A stretch of 38,393 bases of DNA from Deltaproteobacteria bacterium. GTDB taxonomy: Bacteria; Desulfobacterota; Deferrimicrobia; Deferrimicrobiales; Deferrimicrobiaceae. Below the pieces are notes generated by a model that saw only the letters and a list, made by a program, of their open reading frames with translations, was not told the DNA's origin and searched no databases. The stretch spans positions 1-38,393 of the forward strand of contig JANXPS010000018.1 of NCBI GenBank assembly GCA_025357175.1, written 5' to 3'. Both the position numbers and the translations under genes were made by a program. Shown here piece by piece: positions 9,001-32,422 of this stretch. Position 1 is the stretch's first letter, and each line of letters begins with the position of its first letter.

Positions 9001-12000
9001 TGTTCCTCTCCAGCGCAGCCGACGTCGTGCACTCGGGCGACGTCTGGTCGATCGCGGTCAACGGGCGGACGTTCCGTTACACGGTGCCCAACGTCGATCC
9101 GGACCACTACGTCTACAGTTCCGACCTGAACATCAACCTGGTCGCGCAAGGGTTGGCCGACGCGATCAACGCGGCGAACCTCTCCTTCTCCGCGTCGAAC
9201 TCGAGCAACGAGGTCACCATCAACGACCGGGACGGCGTGCTCACCGGGCCTTCCCAGACGATCACGGTCGATACGCGCCGGGGCGACGGCACGGTCCGCA
9301 GCATCTTCGACATCGATTCGGTCACCGAGAACGTCGGGTTCATCGTCGCCGACGGCGGCGTCCACTATTACATCGACCGCCCGACGCTTACGCTGCTCAA
9401 GGACGGCAACCCGACCCCGCTCGCCTACAGCAACGGCTCGACGCTCGTCGACAAGGGGAGCCAGTCGACCGACGACCCGTTCCTCGACTACAAGATCGCC
9501 AGCGCAGGCAGCTACAGCGTCCAGGTCGGCACCGTTCGCCACTATACCGACGGCTTCCGGCCCGATGCCGAACTCGGAGTGGTCGCCCCCGGCATCTCCT
9601 ATCAGCTCGATGTCTCCGTTCCCGAACATGCGTACAACCACGACATCCTGGGCCTCGTGGGCAAGCAGGTGCGCATCACCGGCGGCACGGGCATGGGCGA
9701 GTCGGCCACCATCACGAAGTACGACGCCGAGCGGAAGCAGTTCACGATCGACTCGACCTGGGCCACGCTGCCCGACGACACCAGCATCATCGAGATCGGG
9801 ACGGCCTCCGCGATCCCGCCCGCGGTCGACACCTACAGCGTCGTACTCTCGAGCGCCCCGCAGGGCGACGTCGTCGTCGACGTCGTGCCGCAGGCGACAC
9901 GCACCTACAATTCGGCAAAGGCGTTCGACCCGGCATCCAACTTCGGACAGAGCAACATCGTCCAGGTAAAAGCCGCGACGACGCAGGCGATGTTCCACCT
10001 TTCCGGCACGGCTACGGACGGGCTCGACTGGACGGTGACGCTCAACAGCGGCAGCTACACCGCCACCGGTGCCGACCTCGCGACGGTCGCGGCGAACCTG
10101 GCCGACGAAATCAACAAGGACATCCGCTTCACGGCGACGGTCGGAGAGGACGGCGTCACGCTGTTCGTCACCTCGGACGACCGCTTCTACGCCGGCGCAT
10201 CGCTCGAGGCAGGCCTCCAGGGCAGCGTGACGGTCACGCCGCAGCTGCGCTTCACCGCCGGCAACTGGGGCACCCCCCAGTCCGTCGAGGTGCAGGGCCT
10301 CGCCGACCACCTCGTCGACGGCAGCGACGCCCTGGTCTTCCCCGCGTTCGCAGACCGCGTCAACGCGATCCGGGGGCCGGTCACCATCGACGGCGGCATC
10401 AAGATCAACGCCGAGCGTTCGCTCAACGATCCGTTCCTGCTGCCGGGCGAGACCAACTATCCGAAGGCCGACGGAAGCCTGTCCGGCTTCGGCTTCATCG
10501 ACATCGACGGTGTCCGCTACGCGACGCTCACCGACGCCTCGGCCACGCACGTCGATCCGGGCGTCGGCATCAAGGACGGCTTCGATCCGCGCATGAACGG
10601 CTACCCGTACGCCTTCACGATCCTCTCCGGCCCCGACAAGGGCGCCGTCTACGACGTCAAGCAAGTGCTTCTCGACGGCGACGGCAACCCGACGGGCACG
10701 ATCGTCCTCGACATTGCCTACGACAGCGTCGCGGCCGGTTCGAGGCCGGGTTCCGGCGACAGCTACTTCTACGCGCCGGTCAACCGCAACTTCCTCGTGA
10801 CGGAAACGGACCAGGTCGACACGCTCAACGTCTTCAACGGCAACAGCCCCTCCGACGACACGGGCGTGCTGACCGGCACGCACATCGGCGGACTCGGAAT
10901 GGGTGGCGACACGGTCATCGGCGGAAGCCCCATCCAGGGCGGCATCGATTACCGCAATATCGAGGCGCTGAACATCGACCTCGGCAGCGGAAATGACACG
11001 TTCACGGTCGAGTCCACCCACGCGGGTTCCACCGCCATCAACACCGGCGCAGGAAACGACGTCGTCACCGTCAAGACGATCTCGGGCCACACCACGATCT
11101 CGACCGGCGCCGGAGCCGACGTCGTGAACGTCGGCAGCGACAACGGCATCGTCGACCAGATCGCCGGTCTCCTTGCGGTGAACATGGGCGGCAATTCAGG
11201 CGACAAGCTCGCCGCCGTCAACACGGGCGACAGCGGCGACAACGTCGCGACGGTGACCGGCACCACCATCACCGGCCTCGACATGCCGACGGTCGGCAGC
11301 GTGCAGAGCGTCTACGTCCAGGCTCGCACCGGTTCTTTCGCGTTGTCCGCGGCCGGATACGGGCAGATCATGGTCGAGTACGGCACCTCAGCCTCCGACG
11401 TCCAGGCTGCGCTCAACGACCTGTTCGGAACGGCCGACGACGTCAAGGTCGCCGAGTCGCGGGACGTCCGCTACGGGGAGCTGTGGTCGGTCTCCTACAA
11501 CGTCACCTTCGTCGACTCCCTCGCCGGAACCGCGATTCCGCAACTTGCGTGGGTCGAGGGGCAGGGCGGCCTCACGGGCTATCCCGACTCCTCCGCCTAT
11601 GTACGCGTTTCCACGGCGGTCGATCCGCAGGCGCCGCCGCAGCTGCCGTCGGTCCAGACCGTGACCGTCCATGCGACGGAAGGGACCTTCCGGATCGGCT
11701 TTGCGCTTGATCCCACCGATCCGTCCGCGATCACTTATACCGGCGACATCAAGGCCGGCGCCTCCGGCGACGACGTGCTCAAGGCGCTCTCGGCCGTCCT
11801 CGACCCGAACAACGTCCACCCGGACCGGCCGTACACCAAGAACGTGGCCGTGAGGCAGTTCGGGGACGACTACGTGATCACCTTCCAGGGCGCGCAGCGC
11901 ACCCTGACGATCTCCGGAATCGTAAACGACACGGACGGCTCCGTCACCTGCGCGACGCGGATGAACGGCATCAACTACTACGGCGTGGATACGCTCGACC

Positions 12001-14564
12001 TGACGCTCGGGGCGGGCAACGACATCGTCAACGTGCAGGGTACCGGCGCGACGGCCGCCACGAAGATCGACAGCGGCGCGGGCGACGACAAGATCTTCGT
12101 CTCCTCCGACGCCAACGTGGCCGCGCAGTGGGCGACGGACGGCTTCCTCGCGGGCGACACGTTCCGCTTCCTCGGCGGGACCGACGCACCGTCGCTCGCC
12201 TTCACGATGCCTTCCGGAGCGAAAGCGGCGCGCCTCGATATCCGCGACGCGAACGGCACGCTCGTCCGCACGATCGGCCTGGGCGACCTTGCCGCAGGCG
12301 ACTTCACGCAGAGCTGGGACGGCAGGGCCGACGACGGCCGCACCCTGGCTCCCGGCGCTTTCCGCTTCACGGTCACCGGGGAGGGCCTCGCCGGATCCGT
12401 CGTGACGGCCACCGGCACGATGGCCGGGACGCTCGACGGCCTCGCGTACGCCCTCGACGTCGAGGCGGGCGCGGGCAACAACACGCTCATGGTCAGCGAC
12501 GCCGGGTCACGGACGGGCGATACCGCAACGCTGGCCGCAGACCGCATCCTGGGGCTGTCGGACGGGGATATCACCTACGTGTCGACCGGCGGCGACTTCA
12601 ACGGCGGCATCACGGTCTGGAGCGGCTACGGCGCCGACAACATCACCGTGACCGGTTCCGCTTCCGATGTCGAAGGACGCACCGTCACGACGGTCAACAC
12701 CGGCCTGGGAGACGACCATGTTTCCGTGTCGCTCCACGCGGGCACGGACGGCTTCTTCGTCCTCAACACGCAAGGGGCGTACGACCACGACAATCTGAAT
12801 GCCGACATCACCGACAACGACACCGTCGATGCATCGGCCTCCACGCTGCCGCTGGTCATCTTCGGCGGCCAGGGCGACGACAACCTCACGGGCGGCAGCG
12901 GCAACGACATCATCTTCGGCGACCGCGGCCGGGTCGACTATCTCGACGCAGACGGCAACGTCGTCGCGACCCTCGGACGCGGCGGACTCGGCGACGCGAC
13001 GGACGGCCTGCAGCACACGGCGCTTTCCGCACACACGGTCGATCCGGCCGTCGGCGGCGACGATACGATCGATGCGCGCGAGGGCGACAACCTCGTCTTC
13101 GGCGGCGCCGCCAACGATCACATCACCTCCGGCACGGGCAACGACGTCCTGGCCGGCGACAGCGGCATCGCCACCATCGCGGCGTCCGGGGTGCTGTCCG
13201 GGGTCGCTTCGACCGACGCCGGAATCGGCGGAAACGATACGATCATCTCCGGCGACGGCAACGACGTCGTGATCGGCGGATTCGGCGGCGACACCCTCAC
13301 GGACGGAACCGGCCGCGGTTACCTGCTCGGCGACAACGGGACGGTCTCCTTCGATTCGACCGGCCGCGTGGCGATCGTCTCGACGTCGGACACCGTCGCG
13401 GAAACGGGCGGAGACGACACGATCACGACCGGCGACGGCGACAAATACGTCTTCGGGGGTGTCGGCGACGACACGATCACGACCGGCAGCGGCGACGACG
13501 TCCTCACCGGCGACAACGGTGTGCTCTCCTTCAAGAAGGACGGGACGCCGGGCCTCCTCAGGACCGTGTTGCCGTCGCTTGGCGGCGACGACACGATCCA
13601 CGCGGGCGAAGGCGACAACATCGTGATCGGCGGGATGGGGAGCGACACGCTCGACGCCGGTGCGGGTGACGACATCCTCATCGGTGACGGCGGCAGGGCC
13701 GAATGGACCGGGAGCCATTCAATCGTCGTCGAGTCGACCGATCCCTTCGTCGGGAAAGCCGATGTCCTGAACGGCCAGGGCGGGAACAACGTCCTGATCG
13801 GCGGGGCGGGGAGCGATCTCTTCTACGGCAACCTGTCCAAGGATCTGATGATCGGCGACAACGGCCGGGTGACGATTGAAAACGGGCAGGTGACGACCGT
13901 CGTCCTCATGGGTCAATATCCGCTCGACCTGATATCCTCGATCGAGTTCGGCCTCTACGGATCGCCCTGGGTCGGAGCGTCCGCCTCGGGCGGGGAAGAA
14001 AAGGCGGGGCAGGGGCTCGTGCTGCCCGAGACGATGAGGGGGGTCAGTCCCATCAACGACTTCCTGAAGACCGTGATCAACTTCTACGCACCCCGTCCGA
14101 CGGTCTGGACGGCGCCCGCGATGACGTTCCACGGCAGCGCCGCGGCAGCGCCCGCCCCGGCGACTCCGGCTCCCTCCGCCGACAGGGAGTCGGTCGAGAA
14201 ATCGATCCAGTCGCTCCTCGACTTCTTCGTCCCCGTCGCGCTGGCGGAGTCGGGGGATGAACGGATCGCCGCCTTGTGCGAAGATGGTTCGTCGACCGTC
14301 ATGACCGACGACGGCCTGATCGTGGACGCACGCCTCTCCGGCGGCGACGCCGGCGCGGCCAAGGCGCTGGCGAACGCCGCTCCGCCTTCCGCCCCGGCCA
14401 AGGAATCCGGCGAACCGGCGGCGCTCGAATCGCTGGTCGCGGGGGTTGCGGGCTGGAACGTCGCATCCAACGGCGCTTCCGACCGGAAGGTCAGGCTCGA
14501 CCGGGAGGCATTCGAGAATCTGGAACGGAAAACGCGCGAGCGCAAATTCCGCAAGTGGCACTAA
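1..14564 (+). CDS. Giant secreted mosaic repeat protein (RTX / Calx-beta-like / PPC-like adhesin-type), 5'-partial; >4848 aa in window
   Basis: Single uninterrupted frame from the window edge (no stop in codons 3-17 upstream of the listed GTG at 18) to TAA at 14562-14564. G/C-rich third positions. Readable domain content: beta-helix-like N-terminal part, many GGxGxD motifs, Calx-beta-like segments, C-terminal GGxGxDxUx nonapeptides. Confidence 0.9.
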   Translation, partial: LAVDHVSAGAEVRLKGKSGLTDGRAADSDVANVTGGDIILEGGSGGIGAPGAGNAFDVLLNGTTGLTARAANDVYITSEGDLRLMEIYSAGGTIDLRSKLSILDAYDEVTQATLAEKPFAKITGASAYLKAGDHIGTSGNAIETKLGTISATAENDIFLYEISTHAMSVGTVESTGGDVSLSADYGIEKKAGSTGANVIGDSIVLSNLMAGSIGVAGGSQDLVVKTRALTGAGVPTEDRGLSTHAFGNIYIQASGDLYLNAVSADNGGDAYISAPTGRIINGRLSGGANVTSGRTRLFANGDIGAAGNAITSEVSALEGLSIAGSFFLANSGDMTIGGITGAAKAIDAAGPVDISNACETWVEGDVESDGNVNITTDDDWQPGDEEARDEIIVRSGKTIRSTDLVHGSVTLRAGDGVKVEAGGTVASGHIVIGTVDGDGDGNVIELYGTLTAGDVLVEGGAHNDTIVITNTSSPTTVNAGGGDDTVHIGSHATPTTNTGGTTQRIAAGLTVNGGTGNDTVVVDDTGSNTARTLVLTDSTIDGISPATIHYSGLETLDIHLGNLGNTAKVRSTALDATTTITTGGGSDTIYVGSSDDGVSTVNGLAGRLILDGQVGTDTLRIDDMGDDSDNTGAMTRDSVTGLGTAGIDYTRLEAMTVDMGTGGDDFTISSVNAATSTFVNGNAGNDIVRVGTLLTDIGGPLYIQGGEGDDRLVVDNSSQTQGQEGTMLAETREGADPDTYLLSGFGLSPAGIDYRAFEKFALKLGTGDDKLYVATTIPGDNVIDLNDGNDVVNINEIDGSVVPTKTGSTTVFGGIGNDIFRVNYDGNGNQTFQNGIHGELSLHGGAGSDLYQIGLSGGGSSIINVTDLAPSNDLGINIMEVYGTNLPDYFLFRPNTIASVELGAERQPLPGGGIERINYDRSLNGGINVYGRDGDDTFVFDETSAPLTVYGDGGNDTFQVGQMFKSQRDAAAGLAPEDTFETIATTQGYLSNGASEPLTLYGGTGDDSFTVYHTGAELFLFGEAGDDTFRVHAFVKIDPNDLKKPFTNINGGQGSDFITYTVNAPVNIDGGDGFDTLTIVGSEFGDDFVITDKGIYGAGFPVRYTGLEKITVDGMQGNDTFFIESTPENVQLEIVGGLGSDTFNIGGSNGQPVTVVGKNMDGHSGLIDNDINAALSSADYANLFVPDVSAIIADADSAGVVIRPVDDTTTLLEGGTTLMTYAVVLARQPEEDVRVTATQSKPNESDAKAGGKGVLLNGCADGVTLLFSRDNWYVPQYVTVSAPADALAEGTKSYVIQHTAVQGADPNDGGAYDGVKVASLKTTVLDGDQAGVMVTQTNGGTAVAEGASDVNGTSRTDTYQVVLTQKPTGTVHIVLTNADGRLLLDGSPATASADDTVNRFELTFDETNWNVAQTVVVASAGPDGVVQGNAYSRITQRVDSNDLSAFYALSVDNVASNLSGKLAGEVTQDYATSYDPATRILSVTGSGFSASASFKYSAYADPSALEITDSAPSGSKWLEAGVTLSGTPEAGQSWSLVLNGKSYSYNVEEGDSLQYVEHVLSLQAGVRGYATSFDGTSISITAKDGSAFSASLKIDGVLTPGQIAVEGTRALGRVDIQLGDSAALGNVWTVTLNGKAYAFTAGGNRTAEEIAPLDVLVADADTPGVLVTQTGGNTQVIEPTDYSVIGSGAVTSAIDGSHFIADFGQSVLQETSSLHDTIDSAQDLDLGKWSLNANTEIQQAGEIPHITLQAAGDNTPDYYKFTVTQKMIADATDGKVSVILDVDHGYEDGDTVFWGSQITLFDAAGQVMTDTSRTVSPLDWTVNSDSNGHPISMGTGFSDPATAGAGGSSTYLDDYLAWDVTSAGTYTVKVDNWLSWYTYWQTGSTTGVPQGTDYDLQVSVENHGTNNFRFSPDPIFEAEPVNNVSQNIDATGNWSTFYDPKVGNTDYTGGLTGSSTPYVKIIGSGDGSKDVYQFTVTSDMLNPTSTDNVTGPTVAGSYYKSADLVFRGAGSVGDVWTLTLDGKDYSYTATTASLSEVVIGLEATLPTGTAGYGLSTGTTGETGDTLSISLANGFRIDGLKRVAADAGTTSRLETTGGTAFTHADIALGGTVSPGGRWTLTVGGNVYFRDIGATAVGQDVIAADIVSQITGDSGATFTASVDSVDDRLIHIDAKAGNTAGFTVAFMQSGSSAQLLSGTADISGTPVQSTASTVRWSTADLVLQGSAVQNETWRVTLGLIQINSAMVSSTDTLDDVGADLMGKINSDSRTKDDYVAAYSADSKTLEIKLKAGGSVKSFTAAIDILPGSRGTITAGSGVVTHGITLTGTPAAGQIWSLVADAGSAGKTTVTQVVDATHDTLGKIAESLAGKLVAANSDYRAVDDNGTVVASNVNNDAFTVTSTVNPLLSSADVSTSVRTVSLTGTVVTGEKWTVSFDINGTADSVEHLVADSATEMLADIAKDLSDKLVAKGCTSVSVGGTVIVEGLASGDTVTASTTSAGTVTADDSNASARTLDLAGTRTKDEVWTMSIMSGATVLGTASHTVGANGESLTTIALDLATQLSAGDYGAVSDSGRVTVAGLASGSAFTLTYTVDGVAGSATDSAATVHRFNIGGTAGTGETFSITEGTTTRTHVAADGQLPGAIATDFATKLTTGNYKAFASGGSVVIVRIDSGTYGASTSSVSKGGVDTVSTPKATAFTLEGTPASGQIWSASISGGGPSTSHPFATGDTVPKIATALASGLVGSGYVAYATGDTVTVCKIDGSSFTATFTLSPGGSAATVATSIIALGGTASIGETWSVSVDGGGPVASHIVAANGEAMSVIAADLVGQLNGTETDGYTAVYKNGKIVVSKVGAASLTITKPPVQSPPSAGSVLFKGTPKTTFSQSASLLDVDGVADGKCASDDQWTITVGGHTFTWPATVSGTPTDASVDLDTVAAGLAGLLNGSAYGYTATATNHSVSVSKADGSSLSVGDVSVSIKRAGTTPVTESDTRTHYSTAHVFLSSAADVVHSGDVWSIAVNGRTFRYTVPNVDPDHYVYSSDLNINLVAQGLADAINAANLSFSASNSSNEVTINDRDGVLTGPSQTITVDTRRGDGTVRSIFDIDSVTENVGFIVADGGVHYYIDRPTLTLLKDGNPTPLAYSNGSTLVDKGSQSTDDPFLDYKIASAGSYSVQVGTVRHYTDGFRPDAELGVVAPGISYQLDVSVPEHAYNHDILGLVGKQVRITGGTGMGESATITKYDAERKQFTIDSTWATLPDDTSIIEIGTASAIPPAVDTYSVVLSSAPQGDVVVDVVPQATRTYNSAKAFDPASNFGQSNIVQVKAATTQAMFHLSGTATDGLDWTVTLNSGSYTATGADLATVAANLADEINKDIRFTATVGEDGVTLFVTSDDRFYAGASLEAGLQGSVTVTPQLRFTAGNWGTPQSVEVQGLADHLVDGSDALVFPAFADRVNAIRGPVTIDGGIKINAERSLNDPFLLPGETNYPKADGSLSGFGFIDIDGVRYATLTDASATHVDPGVGIKDGFDPRMNGYPYAFTILSGPDKGAVYDVKQVLLDGDGNPTGTIVLDIAYDSVAAGSRPGSGDSYFYAPVNRNFLVTETDQVDTLNVFNGNSPSDDTGVLTGTHIGGLGMGGDTVIGGSPIQGGIDYRNIEALNIDLGSGNDTFTVESTHAGSTAINTGAGNDVVTVKTISGHTTISTGAGADVVNVGSDNGIVDQIAGLLAVNMGGNSGDKLAAVNTGDSGDNVATVTGTTITGLDMPTVGSVQSVYVQARTGSFALSAAGYGQIMVEYGTSASDVQAALNDLFGTADDVKVAESRDVRYGELWSVSYNVTFVDSLAGTAIPQLAWVEGQGGLTGYPDSSAYVRVSTAVDPQAPPQLPSVQTVTVHATEGTFRIGFALDPTDPSAITYTGDIKAGASGDDVLKALSAVLDPNNVHPDRPYTKNVAVRQFGDDYVITFQGAQRTLTISGIVNDTDGSVTCATRMNGINYYGVDTLDLTLGAGNDIVNVQGTGATAATKIDSGAGDDKIFVSSDANVAAQWATDGFLAGDTFRFLGGTDAPSLAFTMPSGAKAARLDIRDANGTLVRTIGLGDLAAGDFTQSWDGRADDGRTLAPGAFRFTVTGEGLAGSVVTATGTMAGTLDGLAYALDVEAGAGNNTLMVSDAGSRTGDTATLAADRILGLSDGDITYVSTGGDFNGGITVWSGYGADNITVTGSASDVEGRTVTTVNTGLGDDHVSVSLHAGTDGFFVLNTQGAYDHDNLNADITDNDTVDASASTLPLVIFGGQGDDNLTGGSGNDIIFGDRGRVDYLDADGNVVATLGRGGLGDATDGLQHTALSAHTVDPAVGGDDTIDAREGDNLVFGGAANDHITSGTGNDVLAGDSGIATIAASGVLSGVASTDAGIGGNDTIISGDGNDVVIGGFGGDTLTDGTGRGYLLGDNGTVSFDSTGRVAIVSTSDTVAETGGDDTITTGDGDKYVFGGVGDDTITTGSGDDVLTGDNGVLSFKKDGTPGLLRTVLPSLGGDDTIHAGEGDNIVIGGMGSDTLDAGAGDDILIGDGGRAEWTGSHSIVVESTDPFVGKADVLNGQGGNNVLIGGAGSDLFYGNLSKDLMIGDNGRVTIENGQVTTVVLMGQYPLDLISSIEFGLYGSPWVGASASGGEEKAGQGLVLPETMRGVSPINDFLKTVINFYAPRPTVWTAPAMTFHGSAAAAPAPATPAPSADRESVEKSIQSLLDFFVPVALAESGDERIAALCEDGSSTVMTDDGLIVDARLSGGDAGAAKALANAAPPSAPAKESGEPAALESLVAGVAGWNVASNGASDRKVRLDREAFENLERKTRERKFRKWH
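1431..3445 (+). repeat. About 19 dispersed calcium-binding-like G-G-x-G-x-D-T/D-hydrophobic repeats inside the giant CDS
   Basis: Read in translation: NAGGGDDTVHIGS, NGGTGNDTVVVDD, TGGGSDTIYVGS, QGGEGDDRLVVDN, YGDGGNDTFQVGQ, YGGTGDDSFTVYH, FGEAGDDTFRVHA, VGGLGSDTFNIGG and others, spaced about 30-60 aa apart. Confidence 0.6.
3579..4325 (+). other. Two consecutive Calx-beta-like domains in the giant CDS
   Basis: ADADSAGVVIRPVDDTTTLLEGGTTLMTYAVVLARQPEEDVRVTA...WYVPQYVTVSAPADALAEGTKSYVIQH, then DGDQAGVMVTQTNGGTAVAEG...YQVVLTQKPTGTVHIVLT...WNVAQTVVVASAGPDGVVQGNAYSRITQRV. Pattern recognition only. Confidence 0.45.
4560..10210 (+). repeat. Array of about 14 degenerate 88-114-aa modules centred on G-x-x-x-G-(E/Q/D)-x-W-(S/T)-hydrophobic, interrupted by PPC-like domains
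   Basis: Conserved Trp codons at 4602, 4884, 6048, 6351, 6693, 6999, 7287, 7572, (Phe at ~7860), 8127, 8391, 8718, 9045 and 10029. Each is followed about 20-30 aa later by an amphipathic L-x-x-I/V-A-x-x-L-A-x-x-L segment and then by a G-x-x-V-x-V...F-T strand pair. Confidence 0.6.
12201..12386 (+). other. FlgD Ig-like (FlgD_ig-type) domain embedded in the giant CDS
   Basis: FTMPSGAKAARLDIRDANGTLVRTIGLGDLAAGDFTQSWDGRADDGRTLAPGAFRFTVTG matches the characteristic 'v.I.D..G..Vr.l.lG....G...f.WDG.d..G......G.Y.f.v' pattern. Confidence 0.45.
12861..13875 (+). repeat. C-terminal RTX (hemolysin-type Ca-binding GGxGxDxUx) nonapeptide block with a higher-order ~60-aa period
   Basis: FGGQGDDNLTGGSGNDIIFGDRG; GGDDTIDAREGDNLVFGGAANDHITSGTGNDVLAGDSG; GGNDTIISGDGNDVVIGGFGGDTLTDG; GGDDTITTGDGDKYVFGGVGDDTITTGSGDDVLTGDNG; GGDDTIHAGEGDNIVIGGMGSDTLDAGAGDDILIGDGG; GQGGNNVLIGGAGSDLFYG. 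Confidence 0.85.
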
Positions 14565-14589: not shown

Positions 14590-14892
14590 ATGGTGCAGGA
14601 CAAGAAGAACGTTCAGGAAACCAAGGCGCCGGCCGGCGGTACGCAGATCCGCTGGGACCACTCCAAGATGGAGACGACCTACGCCAACGTCTGCAACGTG
14701 ACGAGCACGCGTGAGGAGGTTTCGGTCCTCTTCGGAACCAACAAGACGCTCAACGTGGGCCAGCCTGGCGAGATCATCGTCGAACTGACCGACCGGATCG
14801 TCATGAACCCGTTCACCGCCAAGCGCTTCTCCGCGGTCATCAACAAGGTGGTCGCCGATTACGAAGCCGCCCACGGCCCGCTGCCGCTCTAA
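14590..14892 (+). CDS. DUF3467-like small protein (100 aa), paralog 1
   Basis: ATG at 14590, 9 nt after AGGAG (14576-14580). The upstream part of the listed ORF (from 14446) overlaps the giant gene. Core is YANVCNVTSTREEVSVLFG...VELTDRIVMNPFTAKRFSAVINKVVADYEAAHGPL. The DUF3467 assignment is from memory of that family's pattern. Confidence 0.8.
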   Translation: MVQDKKNVQETKAPAGGTQIRWDHSKMETTYANVCNVTSTREEVSVLFGTNKTLNVGQPGEIIVELTDRIVMNPFTAKRFSAVINKVVADYEAAHGPLPL

Positions 14893-14945
14893 GGCGCAGG
14901 ATCCACCGGGAGTAACGACCACGTCCGAATGAGGAGCCTTTTTTC

Positions 14946-15281
14946 ATGAGCAATCGTCCGAAGACCGAAGAGAACCAGACCGCCGAAACCCGTCCGAATC
15001 CCGCCGACGGCCCCCGGATCCAGTGGGACCAGTCGAAGATGAAGACCACCTACGCGAACGTGTGCAACGTCTCCAGCACGCGCGAGGAAGTCTCGATCAT
15101 GTTCGGAACCAACCAGTCGATCAACCTCGGGCAGGGAGAGATCACGATCGAACTGACCGACCGGATCATCCTCAACCCGTACGCCGCCAAGCGCCTCGCC
15201 CAGATCCTGGCGGGCATCGTCAAGCAGTACGAGGCCGCGTTCGGTCCCCTCCCGATCGAGGGCGAAGGTAAATCCCACTGA
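14946..15281 (+). CDS. DUF3467-like small protein (111 aa), paralog 2
   Basis: ATG at 14946 preceded by GAGGAG (~14931-14936). About 60% identical to the preceding gene over an ~83-aa core by my hand alignment (YANVCNVSSTREEVSIMFG...IELTDRIILNPYAAKRLAQILAGIVKQYEAAFGPL). Confidence 0.8.
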   Translation: MSNRPKTEENQTAETRPNPADGPRIQWDQSKMKTTYANVCNVSSTREEVSIMFGTNQSINLGQGEITIELTDRIILNPYAAKRLAQILAGIVKQYEAAFGPLPIEGEGKSH

Positions 15282-15319: not shown

Positions 15320-17140
15320 TTGTGGGAGCGATTCCGTGACGCGCAAGGCGACGATTATCTCCATTACTGGCTGGCGCTGCAGTCCGGCCTGATCGAAGGG
15401 GCGGTCCAGGGCCTTCTCGTGATGGGAACGCCCGGGGCCGGTCCCCCGGTCCCGGTCGCCCGCTGGCCGGAGAGCGGGGCCGATCCAGTCCGGCTGGCCG
15501 AGATCTGCGAGCGCGTCCTCGAAGAGCCCGGCGGTCTCCTCTGCACCTTGCCTGCGCGACCCTCCGAACCGTCGTCCGGAGGGTCGCAGCCGTTTGCGAT
15601 CGCCTATCCCGTCCTGGTGGGCGGCGAGTCGCACGGCGTCGTCGCGTTCGAGGTCGCCGCGATTTCCGAAGAGAATCTGGCTCCGGCCATGAACCAGCTC
15701 CAGTGGGGCGTCTCCTGGCTCGAGCTTTTCGTCCGCCGGCGCAATGCGCAGGACAACGATTCCGTACTCTCCGAAATGAGATCCTCCTTCGACCTTTTGG
15801 CGGCGGTCGTCGACGAGGAGCCCTCCAGCGCGTGGATGCGCTTCGTCACCGAGCTGGCCACGCGGATGCAGTGCGACCGTGCCAGCCTGGGGACTCTGAA
15901 AGGGCACCAGGTCACCGTCCGGGCGATTTCCCACAGCGCCCAGTTCGACCGGAACACGAACCTGGTCCGGCTGATCGGGCGTGCGATGGAAGAGTCGGTG
16001 CTGCAGCGGGACGAGGTGATCTTCCCCCCCCCCGAAGGCGGAAAGATTCTCGTAACCAAGGATCACGACGAGCTGTCCCGCGAACAGGGGGGCGAGGCGA
16101 TCCTGACGATCCCCGTCTACTCGGGCGGGCGGTATACGGGTGCATTGACGCTCGAGCGTCCCGCCTCAGTCCCGTTCGGGGAAACCGAGGTCGGCATCTG
16201 CCGCGGAATCGTCGCGCTGGTCTCCCCCATCCTCGAGCTCAAGCGGCAAAACGACCGCCCCCTGGCGTTCAAGGCCGCGGAATCTCTCCGGGAACAGGCG
16301 GTCCGCCTCTTCGGGCCCCGTTACCCAGGCCGCAAACTGGCGATCCTCCTCGCCTTCGGCGTCGCGTATTTCCTCGCCACGGCCACCGCCGATTACCGGA
16401 TCACCGCTACGGCGGTCCTCGAACCGCTGATCCGCCGCTCGGTCGTCTCCCCCTTCAACGGCTACGTCAAGGAGGCGTTCGTCCGGCCCGGAGACATCGT
16501 CCGGAAGGCGGCGCCGCTCTGCACGCTCGACGACCGCGATCTCCATCTCGAGCGCGCCAAGTGGCAAAACCAGAAGACCCAGTACGAGCGCCAGCAGCAG
16601 GAGGCGGCGGCCACGAACGACCGCGCGAAGGCCAAGATCATCGCCTCCCAGTTCGAACAGGCGGTCGCCCAGCTCGACATGGTCGACCGTCAGCTCAAGC
16701 GGACCAGCCTGGTGGCCCCCTTCGACGGAATCGTGGTCAGCGGCGACCTGAGCCAGCGGATCGACGGCGCCGTCGAGCAGGGCGAGGTGCTGTTCGAGGT
16801 CGCCCCCTTGAACGCCTACCGGGTCATCCTCCAGGTCGTCGAGTACAAGATCGGCGACGTGCATCCGGGCCAGACGGGGGAACTCGTCCTTCCGGCGCGC
16901 ACCGACCTCAAGTACCGCTTCACGGTCGAGAAGATCACCCCGATCGCCTCGCAGAAGGACGGCCAGAACTATTTCCGGGTCGAGGCCAAGCTCGAAGGTT
17001 CGGGCGTGGCCGACCAGACGCTGCGGCCGGGCATGGAAGGGGCCGGAAAGATCCAGGTCGGCCGCGGGAAGCTGCTGGCAATCCGCACGCGCGAACTGGT
17101 CGACTGGGTACGCCTCAAGGTCTGGGCCTGGCTGCCTTGA
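15320..17140 (+). CDS. HlyD-family periplasmic adaptor with a ~330-aa cytoplasmic tandem GAF-like N-terminal region and one TM segment
   Basis: First start after the in-frame TAA at 15269 is TTG at 15320; ATG at 15422 is an alternative. GAF-like segment: FVTELATRMQCDRASLGTLKGHQVTVRAISHSAQFD...LTIPVYSGGRYTGALTLER. TM: LAILLAFGVAYFLATATA. HlyD lipoyl/coiled-coil/barrel: GYVKEAFVRPGDIVRKAAPLCTLDDRDL...LVAPFDGIVVSGD. Confidence 0.8.
   Translation: MWERFRDAQGDDYLHYWLALQSGLIEGAVQGLLVMGTPGAGPPVPVARWPESGADPVRLAEICERVLEEPGGLLCTLPARPSEPSSGGSQPFAIAYPVLVGGESHGVVAFEVAAISEENLAPAMNQLQWGVSWLELFVRRRNAQDNDSVLSEMRSSFDLLAAVVDEEPSSAWMRFVTELATRMQCDRASLGTLKGHQVTVRAISHSAQFDRNTNLVRLIGRAMEESVLQRDEVIFPPPEGGKILVTKDHDELSREQGGEAILTIPVYSGGRYTGALTLERPASVPFGETEVGICRGIVALVSPILELKRQNDRPLAFKAAESLREQAVRLFGPRYPGRKLAILLAFGVAYFLATATADYRITATAVLEPLIRRSVVSPFNGYVKEAFVRPGDIVRKAAPLCTLDDRDLHLERAKWQNQKTQYERQQQEAAATNDRAKAKIIASQFEQAVAQLDMVDRQLKRTSLVAPFDGIVVSGDLSQRIDGAVEQGEVLFEVAPLNAYRVILQVVEYKIGDVHPGQTGELVLPARTDLKYRFTVEKITPIASQKDGQNYFRVEAKLEGSGVADQTLRPGMEGAGKIQVGRGKLLAIRTRELVDWVRLKVWAWLP
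16024..16033 (+). repeat. Poly-C tract of 10 nt inside the GAF-HlyD CDS
   Basis: Sequence reads ...gatcttCCCCCCCCCCgaagg... and encodes F-P-P-P-E. It is the longest homopolymer I found in the window. Confidence 0.95.
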
Positions 17141-19296
17141 GCGGCACGCGCGAACAATCCCTTTACAGCCCATCGTGGTACCGGATCGCCGGCCTGAAAC
17201 CGCGGCTGCGGGGGCACGTCCGGATCCACCGCCAGTACTTCCGCGAGCGGGAATGGTTCGTCCTGCAGGACCGTTCCACCGGCCGCTTCCACCGGATCTC
17301 CCCCGAGGCGTACTACCTCGTCGGCCTGATGGACGGCAACCGGACGATGACCGAGATCTGGGACGCCGCCTGCCTCCGGCTGGGCGACGCCGTGCCCACG
17401 CAGGACGAGGTGATTTCCCTGCTGTCGCAGATCCATCGCTTCGACGGCCTTCAATCCGACCTGCCGCCCGATATCGACGACCTGTCCGACCGTTCCGCGA
17501 AAGAGAAACGGTCGAAGCTCTTCGGCTACATCGCCTCCCCGACCTCCTTCAAGATTCCGCTGCTCGACCCCGACCGCTTTCTCGACCGCACCATCGGCCT
17601 GGTGCGCCCCTTCCTCGGTTGGGGCGGTTTCCTCGCCTGGCTCGCGGTGGTCGGGTACGGCCTCCTGCTCGCCGGCATCCACTGGCGCGAACTCACCTCG
17701 AACGTCACCGACCGGATGCTCAGCGTCGAAAACCTCGTCGTCCTGTCGCTCGTCTTCCCGATCGTGAAGACGCTCCACGAACTCGGCCACGCCTATGCCG
17801 TCAAGCGCGGCGGGGGCGAGGTGCACGAGATGGGGATCATGCTCCTGGTGTTCGTCCCCAACCCCTATGTCGACGCGACCGCCTCATACGCCTTCCGGAC
17901 CAAGTATCCGCGCATGTTCGTCGGCGCCGCCGGGATCATGGTCGAGCTGTTTCTCGCGGGCCTCGGCGCGATCGTGTGGACCAGCGTCGAGCCTGGCGCG
18001 CTGCGGGCGGTCGCCTTCAACACGATGGTGCTGTGCGGCGTATCGACGCTCGTGATGAACGGCAATCCGTTGATCCGCTACGACGCCTACTACATCCTTT
18101 CCGATTACCTCGAGATCCCGAACCTGGGGGCGCGCTCCACGGAATATCTCGGCTATTTCCTCCGCCGCCGGATTCTCGGGATCAAGGAGGCGACACCCAC
18201 GGCGAACGGCGCAAGAGAAGCGTTCATCCTCGCGTCCTACGGCGTCGCCTCGTTCATCTACCGGATCTTCGTCATGTCGGCGATCGCGATGGCGATCGCG
18301 GGCCGCTTCTTCGTGGTCGGGACGATCCTCGCGATCTGGGTGGTCGGCGGATTCGTCGCGATCCCCGCCTGGCGGGCGATCCGCACGATGGGCTCCGATT
18401 CCCTCATGCGCCGCTACCGCGTGCGGGTGGTCCTGGCGGCGACCGTTCTTGCGGGAGTCGTCCTGTTCGCCACCTTCGGTGTCCCCGTCCCCTCGTTCAC
18501 CGTGGTCGAGGGGGTGACCTGGGTCCCCGCGGAATCGCAGATCAACGCGACGGCGGACGGCATCGTCAACGCGCTCCTGGCCGCTCCGGAATCGGTCGTC
18601 CACCGGGGCGACCCGCTGATCCGGATCGAGGCGCTGAAGCTGGAAAAGGACGTCCGCGTCCTCGAGGGCTCGCTGCGCGAGGCCGAATCGCGCTACCAGG
18701 CCAGCCTCGTCTCCGACCGCACGGCGATGGGAATCTACCGGGACGACATGGAAAAGGCACGCCTTGAGCTGACGCGCTCCCGGGAAAAGCTCGGAGGGCT
18801 TCTCGTGCGCAGTCCGGCCGACGGGCTGCTGCTCATCCCGTCCGCGGCCGACCTCCCCGGCCGATACGTCAAGAAGGGCGAGGGGCTGGGCTACGTGGTC
18901 GACTTCCCGAGGGCGGTCGTCCGGATCGCCGTCGACCAGGACGACGTCGAGCGGATCCGCCGGAGGGTCACGAAAGTCGAGGGCCGGCTCGCCGGGGCGA
19001 TCGGAACCGTCATTCCCGCCACCGTCGTCCGCGAGGTGCCCACCGCATCCAACGATTTGCCGAGCCAGGCGCTCTCCGTCGCCGGCGGCGGTCTGATTGC
19101 CGTTTCTCCGGAGGGGGGCGGGCGGAAGCCGAAGTCGATCCGGCGATTCTTTACTTTCGACATCGCCCTGAAGGACGCCCCGATCCGGCGTGTGGGCGAA
19201 CGCGCGTTCATCCGCTTCACCCATCAACCCGAGACGCTGGGAGACCGCTGGATCCGGTCGCTCCGCCGGCTCCTGCTCAGCAAGTTCGACCTGTAG
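17137..19296 (+). CDS. Three-part fusion: PqqD/RRE-like N-domain, polytopic peptidase M50 (site-2-protease-type, HELGH) domain, C-terminal HlyD-type adaptor domain
   Basis: TTG at 17137 overlaps the upstream TGA (TTGA, 17137-17140). The upstream part of the listed 1197-aa ORF overlaps the previous gene. PqqD-like: FHRISPEAYYLVGLMDGNRTMTEIWDAACLRLGDAVPTQDEVISLLSQIHRFDGL. HELGH at 17776-17790, followed by VFVPNPYVDAT. Multiple TM helices. HlyD-like C-terminal part: RGDPLIRIEALKLEKDVRVLEGSLREAESRY...LLVRSPADGLLL. Confidence 0.8.
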   Translation: MSGTREQSLYSPSWYRIAGLKPRLRGHVRIHRQYFREREWFVLQDRSTGRFHRISPEAYYLVGLMDGNRTMTEIWDAACLRLGDAVPTQDEVISLLSQIHRFDGLQSDLPPDIDDLSDRSAKEKRSKLFGYIASPTSFKIPLLDPDRFLDRTIGLVRPFLGWGGFLAWLAVVGYGLLLAGIHWRELTSNVTDRMLSVENLVVLSLVFPIVKTLHELGHAYAVKRGGGEVHEMGIMLLVFVPNPYVDATASYAFRTKYPRMFVGAAGIMVELFLAGLGAIVWTSVEPGALRAVAFNTMVLCGVSTLVMNGNPLIRYDAYYILSDYLEIPNLGARSTEYLGYFLRRRILGIKEATPTANGAREAFILASYGVASFIYRIFVMSAIAMAIAGRFFVVGTILAIWVVGGFVAIPAWRAIRTMGSDSLMRRYRVRVVLAATVLAGVVLFATFGVPVPSFTVVEGVTWVPAESQINATADGIVNALLAAPESVVHRGDPLIRIEALKLEKDVRVLEGSLREAESRYQASLVSDRTAMGIYRDDMEKARLELTRSREKLGGLLVRSPADGLLLIPSAADLPGRYVKKGEGLGYVVDFPRAVVRIAVDQDDVERIRRRVTKVEGRLAGAIGTVIPATVVREVPTASNDLPSQALSVAGGGLIAVSPEGGGRKPKSIRRFFTFDIALKDAPIRRVGERAFIRFTHQPETLGDRWIRSLRRLLLSKFDL

Positions 19297-19309
19297 CGGC
19301 GGCCTTCCC

Positions 19310-21301
19310 ATGCTGCGCGACCTCCTCGACCATCCGCCGGCCACGCACGAGAATCGCTCCGAGCGTCCGGATCCGACGCCGGGCGCCCTCGAGTCGGCTT
19401 TCGACGCCGTCGGCGGGTTTGTCGGGCGGCTGATCCGCTCCCGCCTCCGCAGTCCGGATCGAATCATTTCCCTCGTGGCGTCGCACGCCGGTGAAATGAC
19501 CCGGATGAGCGACGATGGATTGCGCGCCGAGGCGGGCCGGCTCGGCGCCGAAATGCGGCGAAACGGCTTCCGCGACGACCTGGTCGGCCGCACGTTCGCG
19601 CTGATCCGCGAGACGGCGACGCGGACGGTCGGCAAGCGCCACTACGACGTCCAGCTCATGGGCGGGTGGGTGCTGCTTTCGGGTTCGGTCGCCGAGATGG
19701 AAACGGGCGAGGGGAAGACGCTGACGGCGACGCTGGCCGCCGGGACGGTCGCGCTCGCCGGCGTACCGGTCCACGTCCTCTCGGTCAACGACTACCTCAC
19801 CGCGCGCGACGCCGAGGAAATGGGGCCGGTCTACCGGGCGCTGGGTCTCCGCGTCGGATGCGTCGTCCACGACGTGGCGCTCGACAGGCGGCGCGAGCAA
19901 TACCTGTGCGACATCGTCTACTGCACGAACAAGGACGTGGTGTTCGACTACCTGCGCGACCGTCTGGTGCTCAAGGAGTTCGGCGGGATGCCGCTGCGCC
20001 TGCAGGCCGAGGCGCTCTACGAACAGGGGGCGCGGAGCCGTCGCCTCATGCTGCGCGGCCTGCATTACGCGATCACGGACGAGGCCGACTCCCTCCTGAT
20101 CGACGAGTCGCGAACGCCGCTGATCATCTCGGGCGCGGTGGTCGGCCGCGACGAGATCCGTTTCCTAGAGGATGTCCTCGACTTCGCCAGGGCGCTCGAA
20201 AACGGCACCGACTTCAAGCTCGACCTGAACAAGCGCATCGTCGTCGTGACCGCGGAGGGCGACCGCAAGATCGACGACTTTCCCCTGCCGACCGGGTCGC
20301 CCTGGATCAACAGCATCCGCAAGAACGAAATGGTCCGGCGCGCGGTCTCGGCGCTCTACCTGTTCGACCGCGACAAGGAATACCTGGTCCGCGACGGCAA
20401 GGTGCAGATCATCGACGTGTTCACCGGCCGCGTGATGCCAGACCGTTCGTGGGAGCAGGGGCTGCAGCAGCTCATCGAGATCAAGGAAGGGTGCGAGCCG
20501 AGCACCCAGCAGGATACCGTCGCCAAGATCAGCTACCAGACCTTCTTCCGGAAGTACCGCCACCTCTCGGGGATGACGGGCACCGCGAAGGAGGTCCGGG
20601 GAGAGCTGGGGACGGTCTACGGCCTGCCGGTGATCCGGATCCGGACCCACCGGGCGCTGCGGCGGCAGAAGCTTCCCACGCGCATCGTGGCGACGATCGC
20701 CGGGAAGGAGCAGTTGCTGCTTCAGCGGATCGGCGAGATCCACGCGACGGGGCGTCCCGTCCTCGTCGGCACCGGCTCGGTCGCCGCCTCCGAGCGGCTG
20801 AGCGCGTTTCTTGCCGGGGTGGGATTGCCGCACCGGGTCCTCAATGCGAAGAACGACCGGGAGGAGGCGGCCATCGTCGCCCGCGCGGGGGAAATGGGCT
20901 CGGTCACCATCGCCACCAGCATGGCCGGCCGCGGCACCGACATCAAGCTCGGCCCCGGCGTCGAGGCGCTCGGCGGCCTCCACGTCATCCTGACCGAACG
21001 CAACGAGGCCGCGCGGATCGACCGACAGCTGGCCGGCCGTTGCGCGCGCCAGGGAGACCCCGGCATCTACGAGGAGATCCTGTCGCTCGAGGATCCGCTG
21101 CTCGAAGGCGGAGCGGGGGCCGCGGCGTGGATCCTCCGGCGGATTCCCTCGGGGTCGCCCCTGTGGTCGTTCGTGGCCGGGTCGGCGATCGACCGGGCCC
21201 AGAAAAGGACGGAAAGCCACTACCGGCGGATGCGGCGCGACCTCTTCCGGCAGGATTCCCAGTCGAAAAACCGGATGTCATTTTCCGGCCGCGAGGAGTA
21301 A
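19310..21301 (+). CDS. SecA-like DEAD-motor ATPase, C-terminally truncated relative to canonical SecA (663 aa)
   Basis: ATG at 19310; the listed ORF start at 19190 overlaps the previous gene. SecA signatures: EMETGEGKTLTATL (GEGKT at 19706-19720), VHVLSVNDYLTARDAEEMG, IVYCTNKDVVFDYLRD, LHYAITDEADSLLIDESRTPLIISG (DEAD at 20078-20089), SGMTGTA, VLVGTGSVAASERLS, LNAKNDREEAAIVARAG, TIATSMAGRGTDIKLG, GGLHVILTERNEAARIDRQLAGRCARQGDPG. Confidence 0.9.
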   Translation: MLRDLLDHPPATHENRSERPDPTPGALESAFDAVGGFVGRLIRSRLRSPDRIISLVASHAGEMTRMSDDGLRAEAGRLGAEMRRNGFRDDLVGRTFALIRETATRTVGKRHYDVQLMGGWVLLSGSVAEMETGEGKTLTATLAAGTVALAGVPVHVLSVNDYLTARDAEEMGPVYRALGLRVGCVVHDVALDRRREQYLCDIVYCTNKDVVFDYLRDRLVLKEFGGMPLRLQAEALYEQGARSRRLMLRGLHYAITDEADSLLIDESRTPLIISGAVVGRDEIRFLEDVLDFARALENGTDFKLDLNKRIVVVTAEGDRKIDDFPLPTGSPWINSIRKNEMVRRAVSALYLFDRDKEYLVRDGKVQIIDVFTGRVMPDRSWEQGLQQLIEIKEGCEPSTQQDTVAKISYQTFFRKYRHLSGMTGTAKEVRGELGTVYGLPVIRIRTHRALRRQKLPTRIVATIAGKEQLLLQRIGEIHATGRPVLVGTGSVAASERLSAFLAGVGLPHRVLNAKNDREEAAIVARAGEMGSVTIATSMAGRGTDIKLGPGVEALGGLHVILTERNEAARIDRQLAGRCARQGDPGIYEEILSLEDPLLEGGAGAAAWILRRIPSGSPLWSFVAGSAIDRAQKRTESHYRRMRRDLFRQDSQSKNRMSFSGREE

Positions 21302-21311
21302 CCTCCTGAAT

Positions 21312-22064
21312 ATGATGAGAATGAAGCGCTTTCTAGCAGTCGTTTGCCTAGCCGGAATCCTGTCGCCCGTCCGGCCCATGGCCGCTCCGCGCGCGATTCC
21401 CGCCGAGGAATTCGACGCGATGATCTACCCCAACGAGACCGTCAAGCTGAGCAGCCAGATCGCCGGAATCCTCGAGGAGGTCTCCGTCGAAAGAGGGGAC
21501 GTCGTCAAGGCGGGACAGGTCGTGGCGCGTCTCAAGGCCGGCGTCGAAAAGGTCGAGGTCGCCCTCGCCGGCGCCAATGTCGACTACCAGAGGCGCAAGA
21601 TCGAACGGAACGCCGAGCTGGCCCGGAAGAAGCTGATTTCCGCGCAGGAGAACGACGACCTCGAGGGCGATCTCAAGAAGGGCGAGCTGATCCTCCAGGA
21701 GGCCGGGGAAAAGCTCAAGATGCGGACCATCCTCTCGACCGTCGACGGCGTCGTGACCGAACGGTTGCTGTCGCCCGGCGATTACGTGGGCGAGGCACCC
21801 ATCCTCAAGATCGCCAGCATCGATCCGCTCAAGGTCGAGGTCATCGTCTCGGCCCGCAAGTACGGATCGATCCGCAAGGGAATGCGCGCCGAGATCCGTC
21901 CCGAGGCGCCGGTCGGCGGCCTCTATTACGGGAAGGTCACGATCGTCGACAAGGTCATCGATCCGGCGAGCAGCACATTCGGCGTCCGGATCGAGTTGGC
22001 CAACCCCGGCTTCCGGCTGCCTTCGGGGCTGAAATGCCGCGTCCGGTTCCTCAAAGAGCCTTGA
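21312..22064 (+). CDS. Small periplasmic membrane-fusion (HlyD/RND-adaptor type) protein with signal peptide (250 aa)
   Basis: ATG at 21312 (ATGs at 21315 and 21321 are alternatives), with GAGGAG at 21293-21298. Signal peptide MMRMKRFLAVVCLAGILSPVRPMAA. Lipoyl-like GILEEVSVERGDVVKAGQVVARL, a short coiled coil, TILSTVDGVVTERLLSPGDYV and a beta-barrel segment. Confidence 0.8.
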   Translation: MMRMKRFLAVVCLAGILSPVRPMAAPRAIPAEEFDAMIYPNETVKLSSQIAGILEEVSVERGDVVKAGQVVARLKAGVEKVEVALAGANVDYQRRKIERNAELARKKLISAQENDDLEGDLKKGELILQEAGEKLKMRTILSTVDGVVTERLLSPGDYVGEAPILKIASIDPLKVEVIVSARKYGSIRKGMRAEIRPEAPVGGLYYGKVTIVDKVIDPASSTFGVRIELANPGFRLPSGLKCRVRFLKEP

Positions 22065-26772: not shown

Positions 26773-26796
26773 CTTCGATTCCTCTCCGATGCCCCG

Positions 26797-26802
26797 ATTA
26801 TA
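26797..26802 (-). promoter_or_regulatory. Candidate -10 box (perfect TATAAT on the minus strand) upstream of the AsmA-like gene
   Basis: Plus-strand attata at 26797-26802 reads TATAAT on the minus strand, about 25 nt upstream of the ATG at 26772 and just upstream of the SD. I could not identify a convincing -35. Confidence 0.25.
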
Positions 26803-26929
26803 ATACCGACCTGCCGGAACCGGCCCTCGAAACCGTCCAGGAACAGCTTTCGGGATCGTTGCAAACCCGCGTTCGCGTCACCCCCGTTTCCCTTGGCGAC
26901 GCGGAGATCATCGAAGTCGGTGCGCCGGT

Positions 26930-28207: not shown

Positions 28208-28225
28208 GGACCGGTGCCCGATCCG

Positions 28226-29512: not shown

Positions 29513-29636
29513 CGAGCGATTCCTCCGATATGACTTCCCGCTTGAAACCCGCGGGGGAAAGGTTCGTAATGTTAATCAGGGTATCAATCGGGACGGCAAC
29601 CTCCAGACCAACGTTAACAACCGGAGGTACGAAGCG

Positions 29637-29939: not shown

Positions 29940-29948
29940 CGGGCCGGG

Positions 29949-32366
<2,418 letters not shown>

Positions 32367-32422
32367 ACCTGTACTGTCGACCCTGTCCGTCTGTTATCTA
32401 TCGGCAAAACGCGCGCGGATGT

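Follow-up and report, generated by a model that had tools for sequence, protein, structure and literature searches.

The closest described relative of the system considered here is the machine predicted by Kamneva, Poudel & Ward (2015, PLoS One, PMC4452313), who by comparative genomics alone defined a conserved "secondary SecA_DEAD" locus and proposed that it encodes an exporter resembling a type I secretion system (T1SS), with the SecA_DEAD protein as the ATPase and an M50 protein as the inner-membrane pore. The gene set described comprises a GAF/HlyD protein, a Peptidase_M50/HlyD protein, a SecA_DEAD protein without the rest of SecA, an HlyD/biotin-lipoyl protein and, sometimes, an OEP/TolC protein. 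Here we analyze such a locus in a 38,393-nucleotide stretch of DNA of a Deltaproteobacteria bacterium (contig JANXPS010000018.1; the window, i.e., the whole of this stretch), where two adjacent small genes, dufA and dufB, encode proteins of the DUF3467 family. Neither DUF3467 nor giant cargo, LEPR-XLL or tailoring enzymes appear in the main text of the 2015 study; its supplement lists, as cluster 5, unnamed conserved hypothetical proteins beside GAF genes, which are probably DUF3467 genes, and its supplementary file 3 (cluster 4) shows SapC family proteins recurring beside the SecA_DEAD locus. A preprint on giant genes describes a parallel case in other phyla, where SecA motor domains without scaffold and wing are embedded in giant proteins. 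We found nothing in the literature on the machine beyond the 2015 prediction, and apparently it has never been studied experimentally; the name DUF3467 occurs there in a single paper, as a line in a proteomics table, PF11950 is absent, and LEPR-XLL appears in two papers, in passing only.

All four proteins of the published gene set are encoded in the window at 15320-22064, in the same order in related loci, and neither the optional TolC/OEP protein nor an ABC exporter was found among the open reading frames (ORFs) examined at 23146-38365. What is new here is that DUF3467 is fused to an ABBA prenyltransferase fold, that related giant proteins carry an LEPR-XLL leader, and that about 40% of the machine clusters have no DUF3467. 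Our preferred reading, which we put forward tentatively, is that DUF3467 may be a cytoplasmic adaptor or holdase, i.e., an accessory of a T1SS-like exporter for giant proteins that acts either free or fused to tailoring enzymes. The exporter itself combines a shortened SecA motor with three proteins of the membrane-fusion type, namely GAF-HlyD, PqqD-like/M50-HlyD and a small adaptor, to which some genomes add TolC.

A first-pass annotation of the window, made from the sequence, had placed dufA and dufB at exactly the positions given in Table 1, and had named DUF3467 and its accession; both are correct, since dufA matches Pfam PF11950 with 74.5 bits (E 7.1e-21) and dufB with 79 bits (E 2.8e-22), where the gathering score of the family is 25 bits. 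The two proteins are 63% identical (85% positives) across 87 aa by BLASTP (E 3e-45), close to the roughly 60% over about 83 aa that had been aligned by hand. Their N-terminal 20 or so residues are unlike, and so are their tails (GPLPL in dufA, GPLPIEGEGKSH in dufB), as had also been noted and as is seen both in the sequences and in our family alignment. A GAGGAG Shine-Dalgarno sequence stands 8-10 nt ahead of each gene, and the gaps of 25-53 nt between the giant gene, dufA, dufB and the next gene contain no promoter-like or terminator-like site that we could find. Neither protein has a hydrophobic N-terminus, a signal peptide or a segment of transmembrane grade, the maximum Kyte-Doolittle value over 19 residues being 0.8-1.2, in agreement with the earlier claim that signal peptides are absent. 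Both are hydrophilic, with isoelectric points (pI) of 6.7 (dufA) and 5.8 (dufB) around a family median of 6.2, and neither RTX repeats nor an LEPR-XLL leader were seen in DUF3467 proteins. A homologue search with dufB gave 1650 homologue clusters, and the DUF3467 alignment (A1) contains 25 invariant residues, the YANVCNVSSTREEV motif among them. Conservation in this alignment extends across the whole domain with no variable core, and what follows the FGxLP motif is a tail of 0-15 hydrophilic residues, with dufA stopping at GPLPL. The alignment also contains an invariant loop rich in Cys, Ser and Thr and including an Arg (NVCNVSSTREE), which is predicted with low confidence in the dufB model.

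Our scan of one genome per species, using the retrieval motifs NVCNV[ST]STR and [LI][NS]P[YF]AAKRL[AS], identified 484 relatives of this DUF3467 subfamily, and locus statistics were taken from the best 80 of these. The presence of genes in each locus was scored by tblastn and hidden Markov model (HMM) searches, as greedy clustering of ORFs suffered from the long antisense ORFs that such GC-rich sequence contains, and the locus counts are approximate because some loci are near-duplicates. Among the 63 loci whose downstream sequence is 7 kb or longer, 47 show the order DUF3467, GAF-HlyD, M50-HlyD, SecA-like, and 3 more show it in part. These loci belong to Geobacter and other Desulfobacterota, Burkholderiales, Gammaproteobacteria, Thiomicrorhabdus, Nitrospirota, Thermodesulfovibrionia and others, and together with the plasmids of Alphaproteobacteria described below they answer the question of linkage raised by the first-pass annotation, i.e., DUF3467 is linked to shortened SecA and HlyD genes in several phyla. 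The 3′ end of a giant ORF lies within 1.5 kb of the DUF3467 gene, on its upstream side, in 49 of 75 testable loci. Thirteen "orphan" DUF3467 loci often still adjoin giant ORFs of 2000-3300 aa, and orphans with no machine nearby flank giant ORFs or LEPR-XLL giants (L055, L056, L058). DUF3467 is also the best-conserved protein of the cluster, with a median identity to the window of 58% versus 43-50% for the machine parts. No relative of this DUF3467 subfamily was found in a phage collection.

We also carried out the reverse test, using the M50-HlyD protein as the query on metagenome contigs. A SecA-like gene lies 3′ of the M50-HlyD gene in all 52 testable loci, and DUF3467 is present upstream in 25 of 42 machine clusters. 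In the other 17 (about 40%) DUF3467 was not found, even with an HMM search included, and in several of them the giant gene extends right up to GAF-HlyD. We conclude that DUF3467 often accompanies the machine as an accessory but is optional.

The same cluster is present on plasmids of cultured Alphaproteobacteria, i.e., in Mesorhizobium, Methylosinus, Pseudosulfitobacter and Pseudohalocynthiibacter. For example, the giant gene measures 31.5 kb in Mesorhizobium ciceri R30 (plasmid NZ_CP088148.1), 26.5 kb in Methylosinus sp. C49, where TolC is part of the cluster, and 38 kb in Pseudosulfitobacter sp. DSM 107133. Plasmid pCSC3H3 of Thalassospira marina (L168, NZ_CP024200.1, 193606-212571) carries an LEPR-XLL giant, DUF3467, HlyD, M50-HlyD, the adaptor and TolC, with no SecA-like gene in the cluster, so that the SecA-like motor is not always encoded together with the rest.

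A third DUF3467 copy is located at the end of the gene string, at the N-terminus of the DUF3467-prenyltransferase (PT) fusion gene (Table 1). The recurrence of the core in this gene had been recognized in the first-pass annotation; the copy is real, though partial, covering positions 34-91 of the 92 in the Pfam profile (37.4 bits, E 2.8e-9) and sharing 35% identity with dufB over 68 aa. The gene starts at a TTG that shares TTGA with the preceding stop codon, and its nearest homologues also start at MIPxRPD, so that the N-terminal truncation is genuine. The C-terminal 270 or so residues gave no match in Pfam, NCBIfam or the sequences of the PDB, the latter searched with the profile of an alignment of its homologues (A2), in which many charged and aromatic residues of enzyme-like character are invariant, with Lys, Arg, Tyr and Glu on the strands. 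The AlphaFold model of this region has a mean predicted local distance difference test score (pLDDT) of 83 and consists of repeated alpha-beta-beta-alpha units, with ten strands in ABBA order. A Foldseek search with it against the PDB returned 92 matches at E<=1e-3 (probability 1.00, E down to 1e-7), and the top matches were all ABBA prenyltransferases, i.e., CdpNPT, 5-DMATS and the enzymes LimF, KgpF, PirF, PagF and PatF, which act on ribosomally synthesized and post-translationally modified peptides (RiPPs). On the basis of this model, the domain is of the ABBA (PT-barrel) prenyltransferase-like fold, with prenyl transfer as its putative activity. It shares the PT-barrel fold with cyanobactin- and DMATS-type enzymes such as PagF, LimF, KgpF and 5-DMATS, but is only 9-15% identical to them, has no Pfam or NCBIfam match and is fused to DUF3467. 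The label "tryptophan halogenase" given by the Joint Genome Institute (JGI) to stand-alone homologues of the PT domain is one that the fold found with Foldseek speaks against.

Fusions of this type are not confined to the window. The PT domain occurs alone, duplicated, with DUF3467, or with FAD-oxidoreductase or sulfotransferase domains, and both DUF3467-PT and DUF3467-PT-PT architectures are common among representatives of clusters at 50% identity. In this search of representatives (A4), sequence weighting turned the PT columns into profile positions and the match list consists mostly of PT-domain proteins, so that it is informative on the fusion family, which is large, and not on the breadth of DUF3467. 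The idea that DUF3467 behaves as a portable module is therefore borne out, as the domain is joined to the prenyltransferase fold in many proteins. The fusion is present in about 7 of 113 DUF3467 loci, and the invariant loop is retained everywhere. In some related clusters the PT domain lies between DUF3467 and the machine genes, with a radical SAM gene after it and often a gene for a methyltransferase as well, which lends these clusters a flavour of RiPP tailoring. Insertions of this sort, comprising a radical SAM gene, a methyltransferase gene and small genes of unknown function, are found in L083 (11926-14756), L085 (11614-12989) and one JGI locus.

The presumed cargo is the giant protein encoded directly upstream of dufA, the last 854 aa of which contain RTX nonapeptide repeats (HemolysinCabind, E 2.5e-23) and a FlgD_ig domain. 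Its C-terminal tail, LVAGVAGWNV...DREAFENLERKTRERKFRKWH (about 14400-14564, plus strand), is kept in the giants of Desulfobacterota-type loci. Giants of the Burkholderiales type end differently, with I-[DN]-W ... SPFG ... N-x-x-[DE]-F. An I-x-W-D motif that might be shared between the DUF3467 N-terminus (IxWDxS) and these Burkholderiales-type tails was considered and is treated as unproven, being weakly supported, with only 15% of tails scoring above the 95th percentile of interior sequence with a position-specific scoring matrix. All three complete giants that we examined from related clusters have a basic N-terminal segment of 35-50 aa and, after it, LEPRxLLSAD (NCBIfam NF012209, LEPR-XLL). 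The same leader is present on further giants, two of which are encoded directly 3′ of orphan DUF3467 genes; it is known from these related giants, as the giant of the window is cut at its 5′ end. The leader is a candidate recognition and cleavage signal for the PqqD-like/M50 protein, and the likely cargo class is that of giants of 5,000-12,000 aa with an LEPR-XLL leader and RTX repeats. Unlike DUF3467, the giants diverge freely in sequence.

The genes from the giant gene to the DUF3467 fusion form one string on the plus strand (Table 1). GAF-HlyD, which combines a cytoplasmic GAF domain with a membrane-fusion (periplasmic adaptor) domain, is encoded directly 3′ of DUF3467 in most related loci. 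The M50 domain of the following protein is of the site-2-protease-like type, with HExxH and NxxPxxxxD invariant in our alignment (A3), and it is nearest to RiPP maturation proteases, matching the NCBIfam models daptide_HExxH (E 2.5e-44, below the cutoff) and YydH/LiaK (E 1.9e-7). The PqqD-like domain at its N-terminus is a weak match (E 0.039), and the NCBI annotation pipeline PGAP calls orthologues "PqqD family protein"; the names given to M50-HlyD proteins are inconsistent, with "biotin/lipoyl-binding protein" and "hypothetical protein" also in use. Its TTG start shares TTGA with the upstream stop (17137-17140), and this overlap and the one at 22061-22064 suggest translational coupling within an operon. 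The SecA-like ATPase scores below the cutoff of all NCBIfam SecA models and, in the Pfam scan, has both motor domains and the preprotein-binding domain but shows no scaffold or wing domain, stopping after the second motor domain. PGAP and RefSeq names for such proteins include "translocase", "DEAD/DEAH box helicase" and, wrongly, "prepilin peptidase". The small periplasmic adaptor matches RND_mfp with 119.8 bits (cutoff 94.9). Beyond the cluster, the minus-strand ORFs examined at 23146-38365 encode YhdP-like, GGDEF, TolB-like, hybrid histidine-kinase and major facilitator superfamily proteins; the YhdP-like (AsmA-family) protein, of 1208 aa, is encoded convergently right after the cluster (23146-26772, minus strand).

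Table 1. Coordinates of the genes of the cluster in the window, and of related features in other loci
Feature	Coordinates	Strand	Description
Giant repetitive protein, presumed cargo	18-14564	+	5′ end beyond the window; >4848 aa present
dufA	14590-14892	+	Free-standing DUF3467 protein, 100 aa, ATG start
dufB	14946-15281	+	Free-standing DUF3467 protein, 111 aa, ATG start
GAF-HlyD	15320-17140	+	606 aa; Pfam GAF, HlyD_3, HlyD_D23; NCBIfam RND_mfp
PqqD-like/M50/HlyD protein (M50-HlyD)	17137-19296	+	719 aa; Pfam Peptidase_M50, HlyD_3; NCBIfam M50 models
Shortened SecA-like ATPase	19310-21301	+	663 aa; Pfam SecA_DEAD (E 2.8e-97), SecA_PP_bind, P-loop_SecA
Small periplasmic adaptor (membrane-fusion)	21312-22064	+	250 aa, N-terminal signal/anchor; NCBIfam RND_mfp; Pfam HlyD_D23, HlyD_3, Biotin_lipoyl_2
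DUF3467-PT fusion	22061-23170	+	N-truncated DUF3467 (about aa 1-75), linker, ABBA (PT-barrel) prenyltransferase-like domain (about aa 95-369)
LEPR-XLL leaders in related giants	L169: 5607-5906; L170: 2983-3282; L171: 1228-1527; L056: ~10640-10800; L058: ~1640-1770	L171: -	
SecA-like genes with inconsistent or misleading RefSeq names	L167: 16458-18374; L166: 17376-19337		Methylosinus pMSC49a (L167); Mesorhizobium (L166)

Several of these observations argue, indirectly, for an adaptor. DUF3467 has none of the export signals that the giants carry, its conservation exceeds that of the machine while the cargo diverges freely, and it tracks giant genes even where no machine or SecA-like gene is adjacent. 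Its optional presence fits an accessory, and not a core subunit or the sole substrate. Its gene sits between the giant and the machine genes on the same strand, and its fusion to an enzyme fold is what would be expected of a module that docks an enzyme onto the client or the machine. Under this reading, free dufA and dufB would bind either the unfolded product of the neighbouring giant gene or a site on the machine at which they dock, so that the giant stays export-competent and is delivered to the machine at its cytoplasmic face. The DUF3467 domain of the fusion protein would bring the prenyltransferase-like tailoring enzyme to the same cargo or site, and such use of a module both fused and free would parallel that of RiPP recognition elements. 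The prenyl diphosphates that serve as donors are cytoplasmic metabolites, which would place the fused copy, as a recruiter of the enzyme, in the cytoplasm, where the free proteins may also reside.

The first-pass annotation had left the choice between chaperone and cargo open, and our analysis leans to the adaptor side of it. The likeness to SecB or to chaperones of type III secretion systems (T3SS) that had been part of the chaperone proposal is not supported. DUF3467 resembles SecB in being small, soluble and encoded beside a SecA-type motor, in its proposed role of keeping a substrate export-competent, and perhaps in the four-strand-plus-long-helix layout of the low-confidence dufB model. 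At the level of sequence we rejected the idea that it is a SecB homologue, however, since alignment of A1 with E. coli SecB (sequence entered by hand) using hhalign gave a probability of 0.4%; there was no match to SecB in Pfam or NCBIfam, and no SecB chain was among the PDB sequence hits at E<=10. Searches of PDB sequences with dufB and with the A1 profile gave chance-level matches only. The AlphaFold model of dufB (beta-beta-beta-beta-helix, with a long helix) has a pLDDT of only 63 and was built on a shallow alignment of 27 sequences; the best Foldseek match of this poor model in the PDB has an E of 0.36, no SecB was returned, and the matches are meaningless. In E. coli, it is the C-terminal tail of SecA that is bound by SecB. 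The SecA-like protein of the window should lack such a tail, since it ends where its second motor domain does, and the Thalassospira cluster has DUF3467 with no SecA-like gene at all. T3SS class I chaperones such as CesT and SycE are likewise of about 100-130 aa and are encoded beside their presumed substrate and secretion genes, as dufA and dufB are directly 3′ of the giant gene, but DUF3467 matches them neither in sequence nor in fold (by a low-confidence model), and it is not acidic. We infer that DUF3467 may work like a chaperone, and we reject, on its sequence, the statement that it is a SecB. It also shares with the PqqD-like RiPP recognition element the property of being a small module that is either discrete or fused to tailoring enzymes within the cluster; the family and the predicted fold differ, a PqqD-like domain is already present on M50-HlyD, and the presumed client of DUF3467 is a protein of several thousand residues and not a peptide.

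A number of points weigh against an adaptor or holdase. About 40% of the clusters have no DUF3467, so the machine can work without it. The searches above detected no relationship to known secretion chaperones by hhalign with SecB, by PDB sequence or by Foldseek on a poor model, and the near-neutral pI of the family stands against the acidic character of SecB and T3SS chaperones. The linkage holds for the subfamily and not for all of Pfam DUF3467, as it was derived from the best 80 of the 484 relatives with subfamily-specific patterns. Finally, the invariant loop could equally be a modification or cleavage site.

A more far-reaching form of the adaptor reading, which we regard as rather unlikely in its entirety, is that DUF3467 is the client-recognition module of a distinct, TolC-coupled pathway driven by a shortened SecA, in which LEPR-XLL/RTX giants are handled like oversized RiPP precursors. 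The PqqD-like domain would read the N-terminal leader and the M50 protease would cut it. Fused DUF3467 domains would bring in optional tailoring enzymes (prenyltransferase, radical SAM, methyltransferase), and it would be for free DUF3467 to hold the giant unfolded and deliver it. The N-truncated DUF3467 on the enzyme might then be completed by a strand donated by the client.

The DUF3467 proteins could instead be the substrates, i.e., RiPP-like precursors or small cargo recognized by the PqqD-like domain, tailored by enzymes, cut by the M50 protease and exported by the HlyD and SecA-like proteins, in which case the DUF3467 domain borne by the enzyme would pair with that of the precursor. We consider this improbable. 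The first-pass annotation had pointed to the likeness of tandem paralogues to precursor genes, and the pair in the window is joined by recent, independent duplications outside the Geobacter-like clade (L008, 96%; L016, 79%; L149, 81%). The kinship of the M50 domain to RiPP maturation proteases, the PqqD-like domain at its N-terminus, the tailoring enzymes inside some clusters and the invariant Cys/Ser/Thr/Arg loop, with its low model confidence, all agree with such a role. The argument from tandem genes is weak, however, since about 90% of loci have a single free copy (two copies occur in about 1 in 10), no variable core is present, and the adjacent giant is the obvious cargo. A conserved leader or follower next to a variable core, the layout of RiPP precursors, was not found in DUF3467, the termini of which are short, hydrophilic and sometimes absent, and the whole domain is more conserved than the machine. 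Tailoring enzymes do not co-occur with it regularly, as the PT fusion is limited to the few loci counted above while the invariant loop is kept in all, and genes for radical SAM proteins and methyltransferases are confined to a subset of clusters. In addition, the 17 machine clusters without DUF3467 keep both the protease and the giant gene, and the giants' own N-terminal LEPR-XLL motif, which is leader-like, fits the PqqD/M50 pair better.

We give a similarly low probability to a regulatory or gating role, in which DUF3467 would bind no cargo but one of three machine parts, i.e., the SecA-like ATPase or the GAF or PqqD-like domain, and would keep the system inactive or link it to translation of the giant gene. 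High conservation relative to its partners, a position always immediately upstream of the sensor-type subunit GAF-HlyD, and absence from some clusters are all consistent with this, as is the frequency of GGDEF genes as neighbours. Such genes are present near DUF3467 and giant genes in 10 loci, for example L015 (11111-12811), L023 (4756-6495), L032 (10862-12601) and L046 (1297-3042), as well as in the window (26930-28207, minus strand), and in several orphan loci they are directly 3′ of DUF3467; by analogy with Lap-type adhesin systems, control by cyclic di-GMP is possible. Against a gating subunit, DUF3467 is retained where there is no SecA-like gene and beside giants with no machine genes nearby, a pure regulator would not readily account for the fusion with a tailoring enzyme, and no regulatory domain signature was found in Pfam or NCBIfam. 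Least probable, in our view, is that dufA and dufB form an obligate heterodimer, as a structural core subunit at the cytoplasmic entry of the channel in this lineage: the Geobacter-like clade has retained A and B as a pair of old standing (A orthologues 60-90% identical, B orthologues 70-76%, A versus B 51-64%), with dufA in the A lineage (identity of 90% with the first of the copies in L081, and of about 60% with those in L001 and L086), and the dufB monomer model is poor with weak fold matches to dimerisation modules, but most lineages are single-copy and many clusters have no DUF3467, so that a heterodimer is no general requirement.

The machine predicted in 2015 becomes testable, as it is now provided with a likely cargo class, a conserved small accessory protein and optional tailoring enzymes tethered through DUF3467. 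Genetics is feasible because cultured carriers exist, i.e., Mesorhizobium ciceri, Methylosinus, Pseudosulfitobacter, Rhizobium and Methylobacterium extorquens AM1. These findings also give a first functional context to DUF3467, a Pfam family of unknown function. If DUF3467 is indeed an adaptor, it would represent a secretion chaperone of a new type, with no relation to SecB or to the T3SS chaperones, and would open a way to study how very long polypeptides are kept export-competent in cells.

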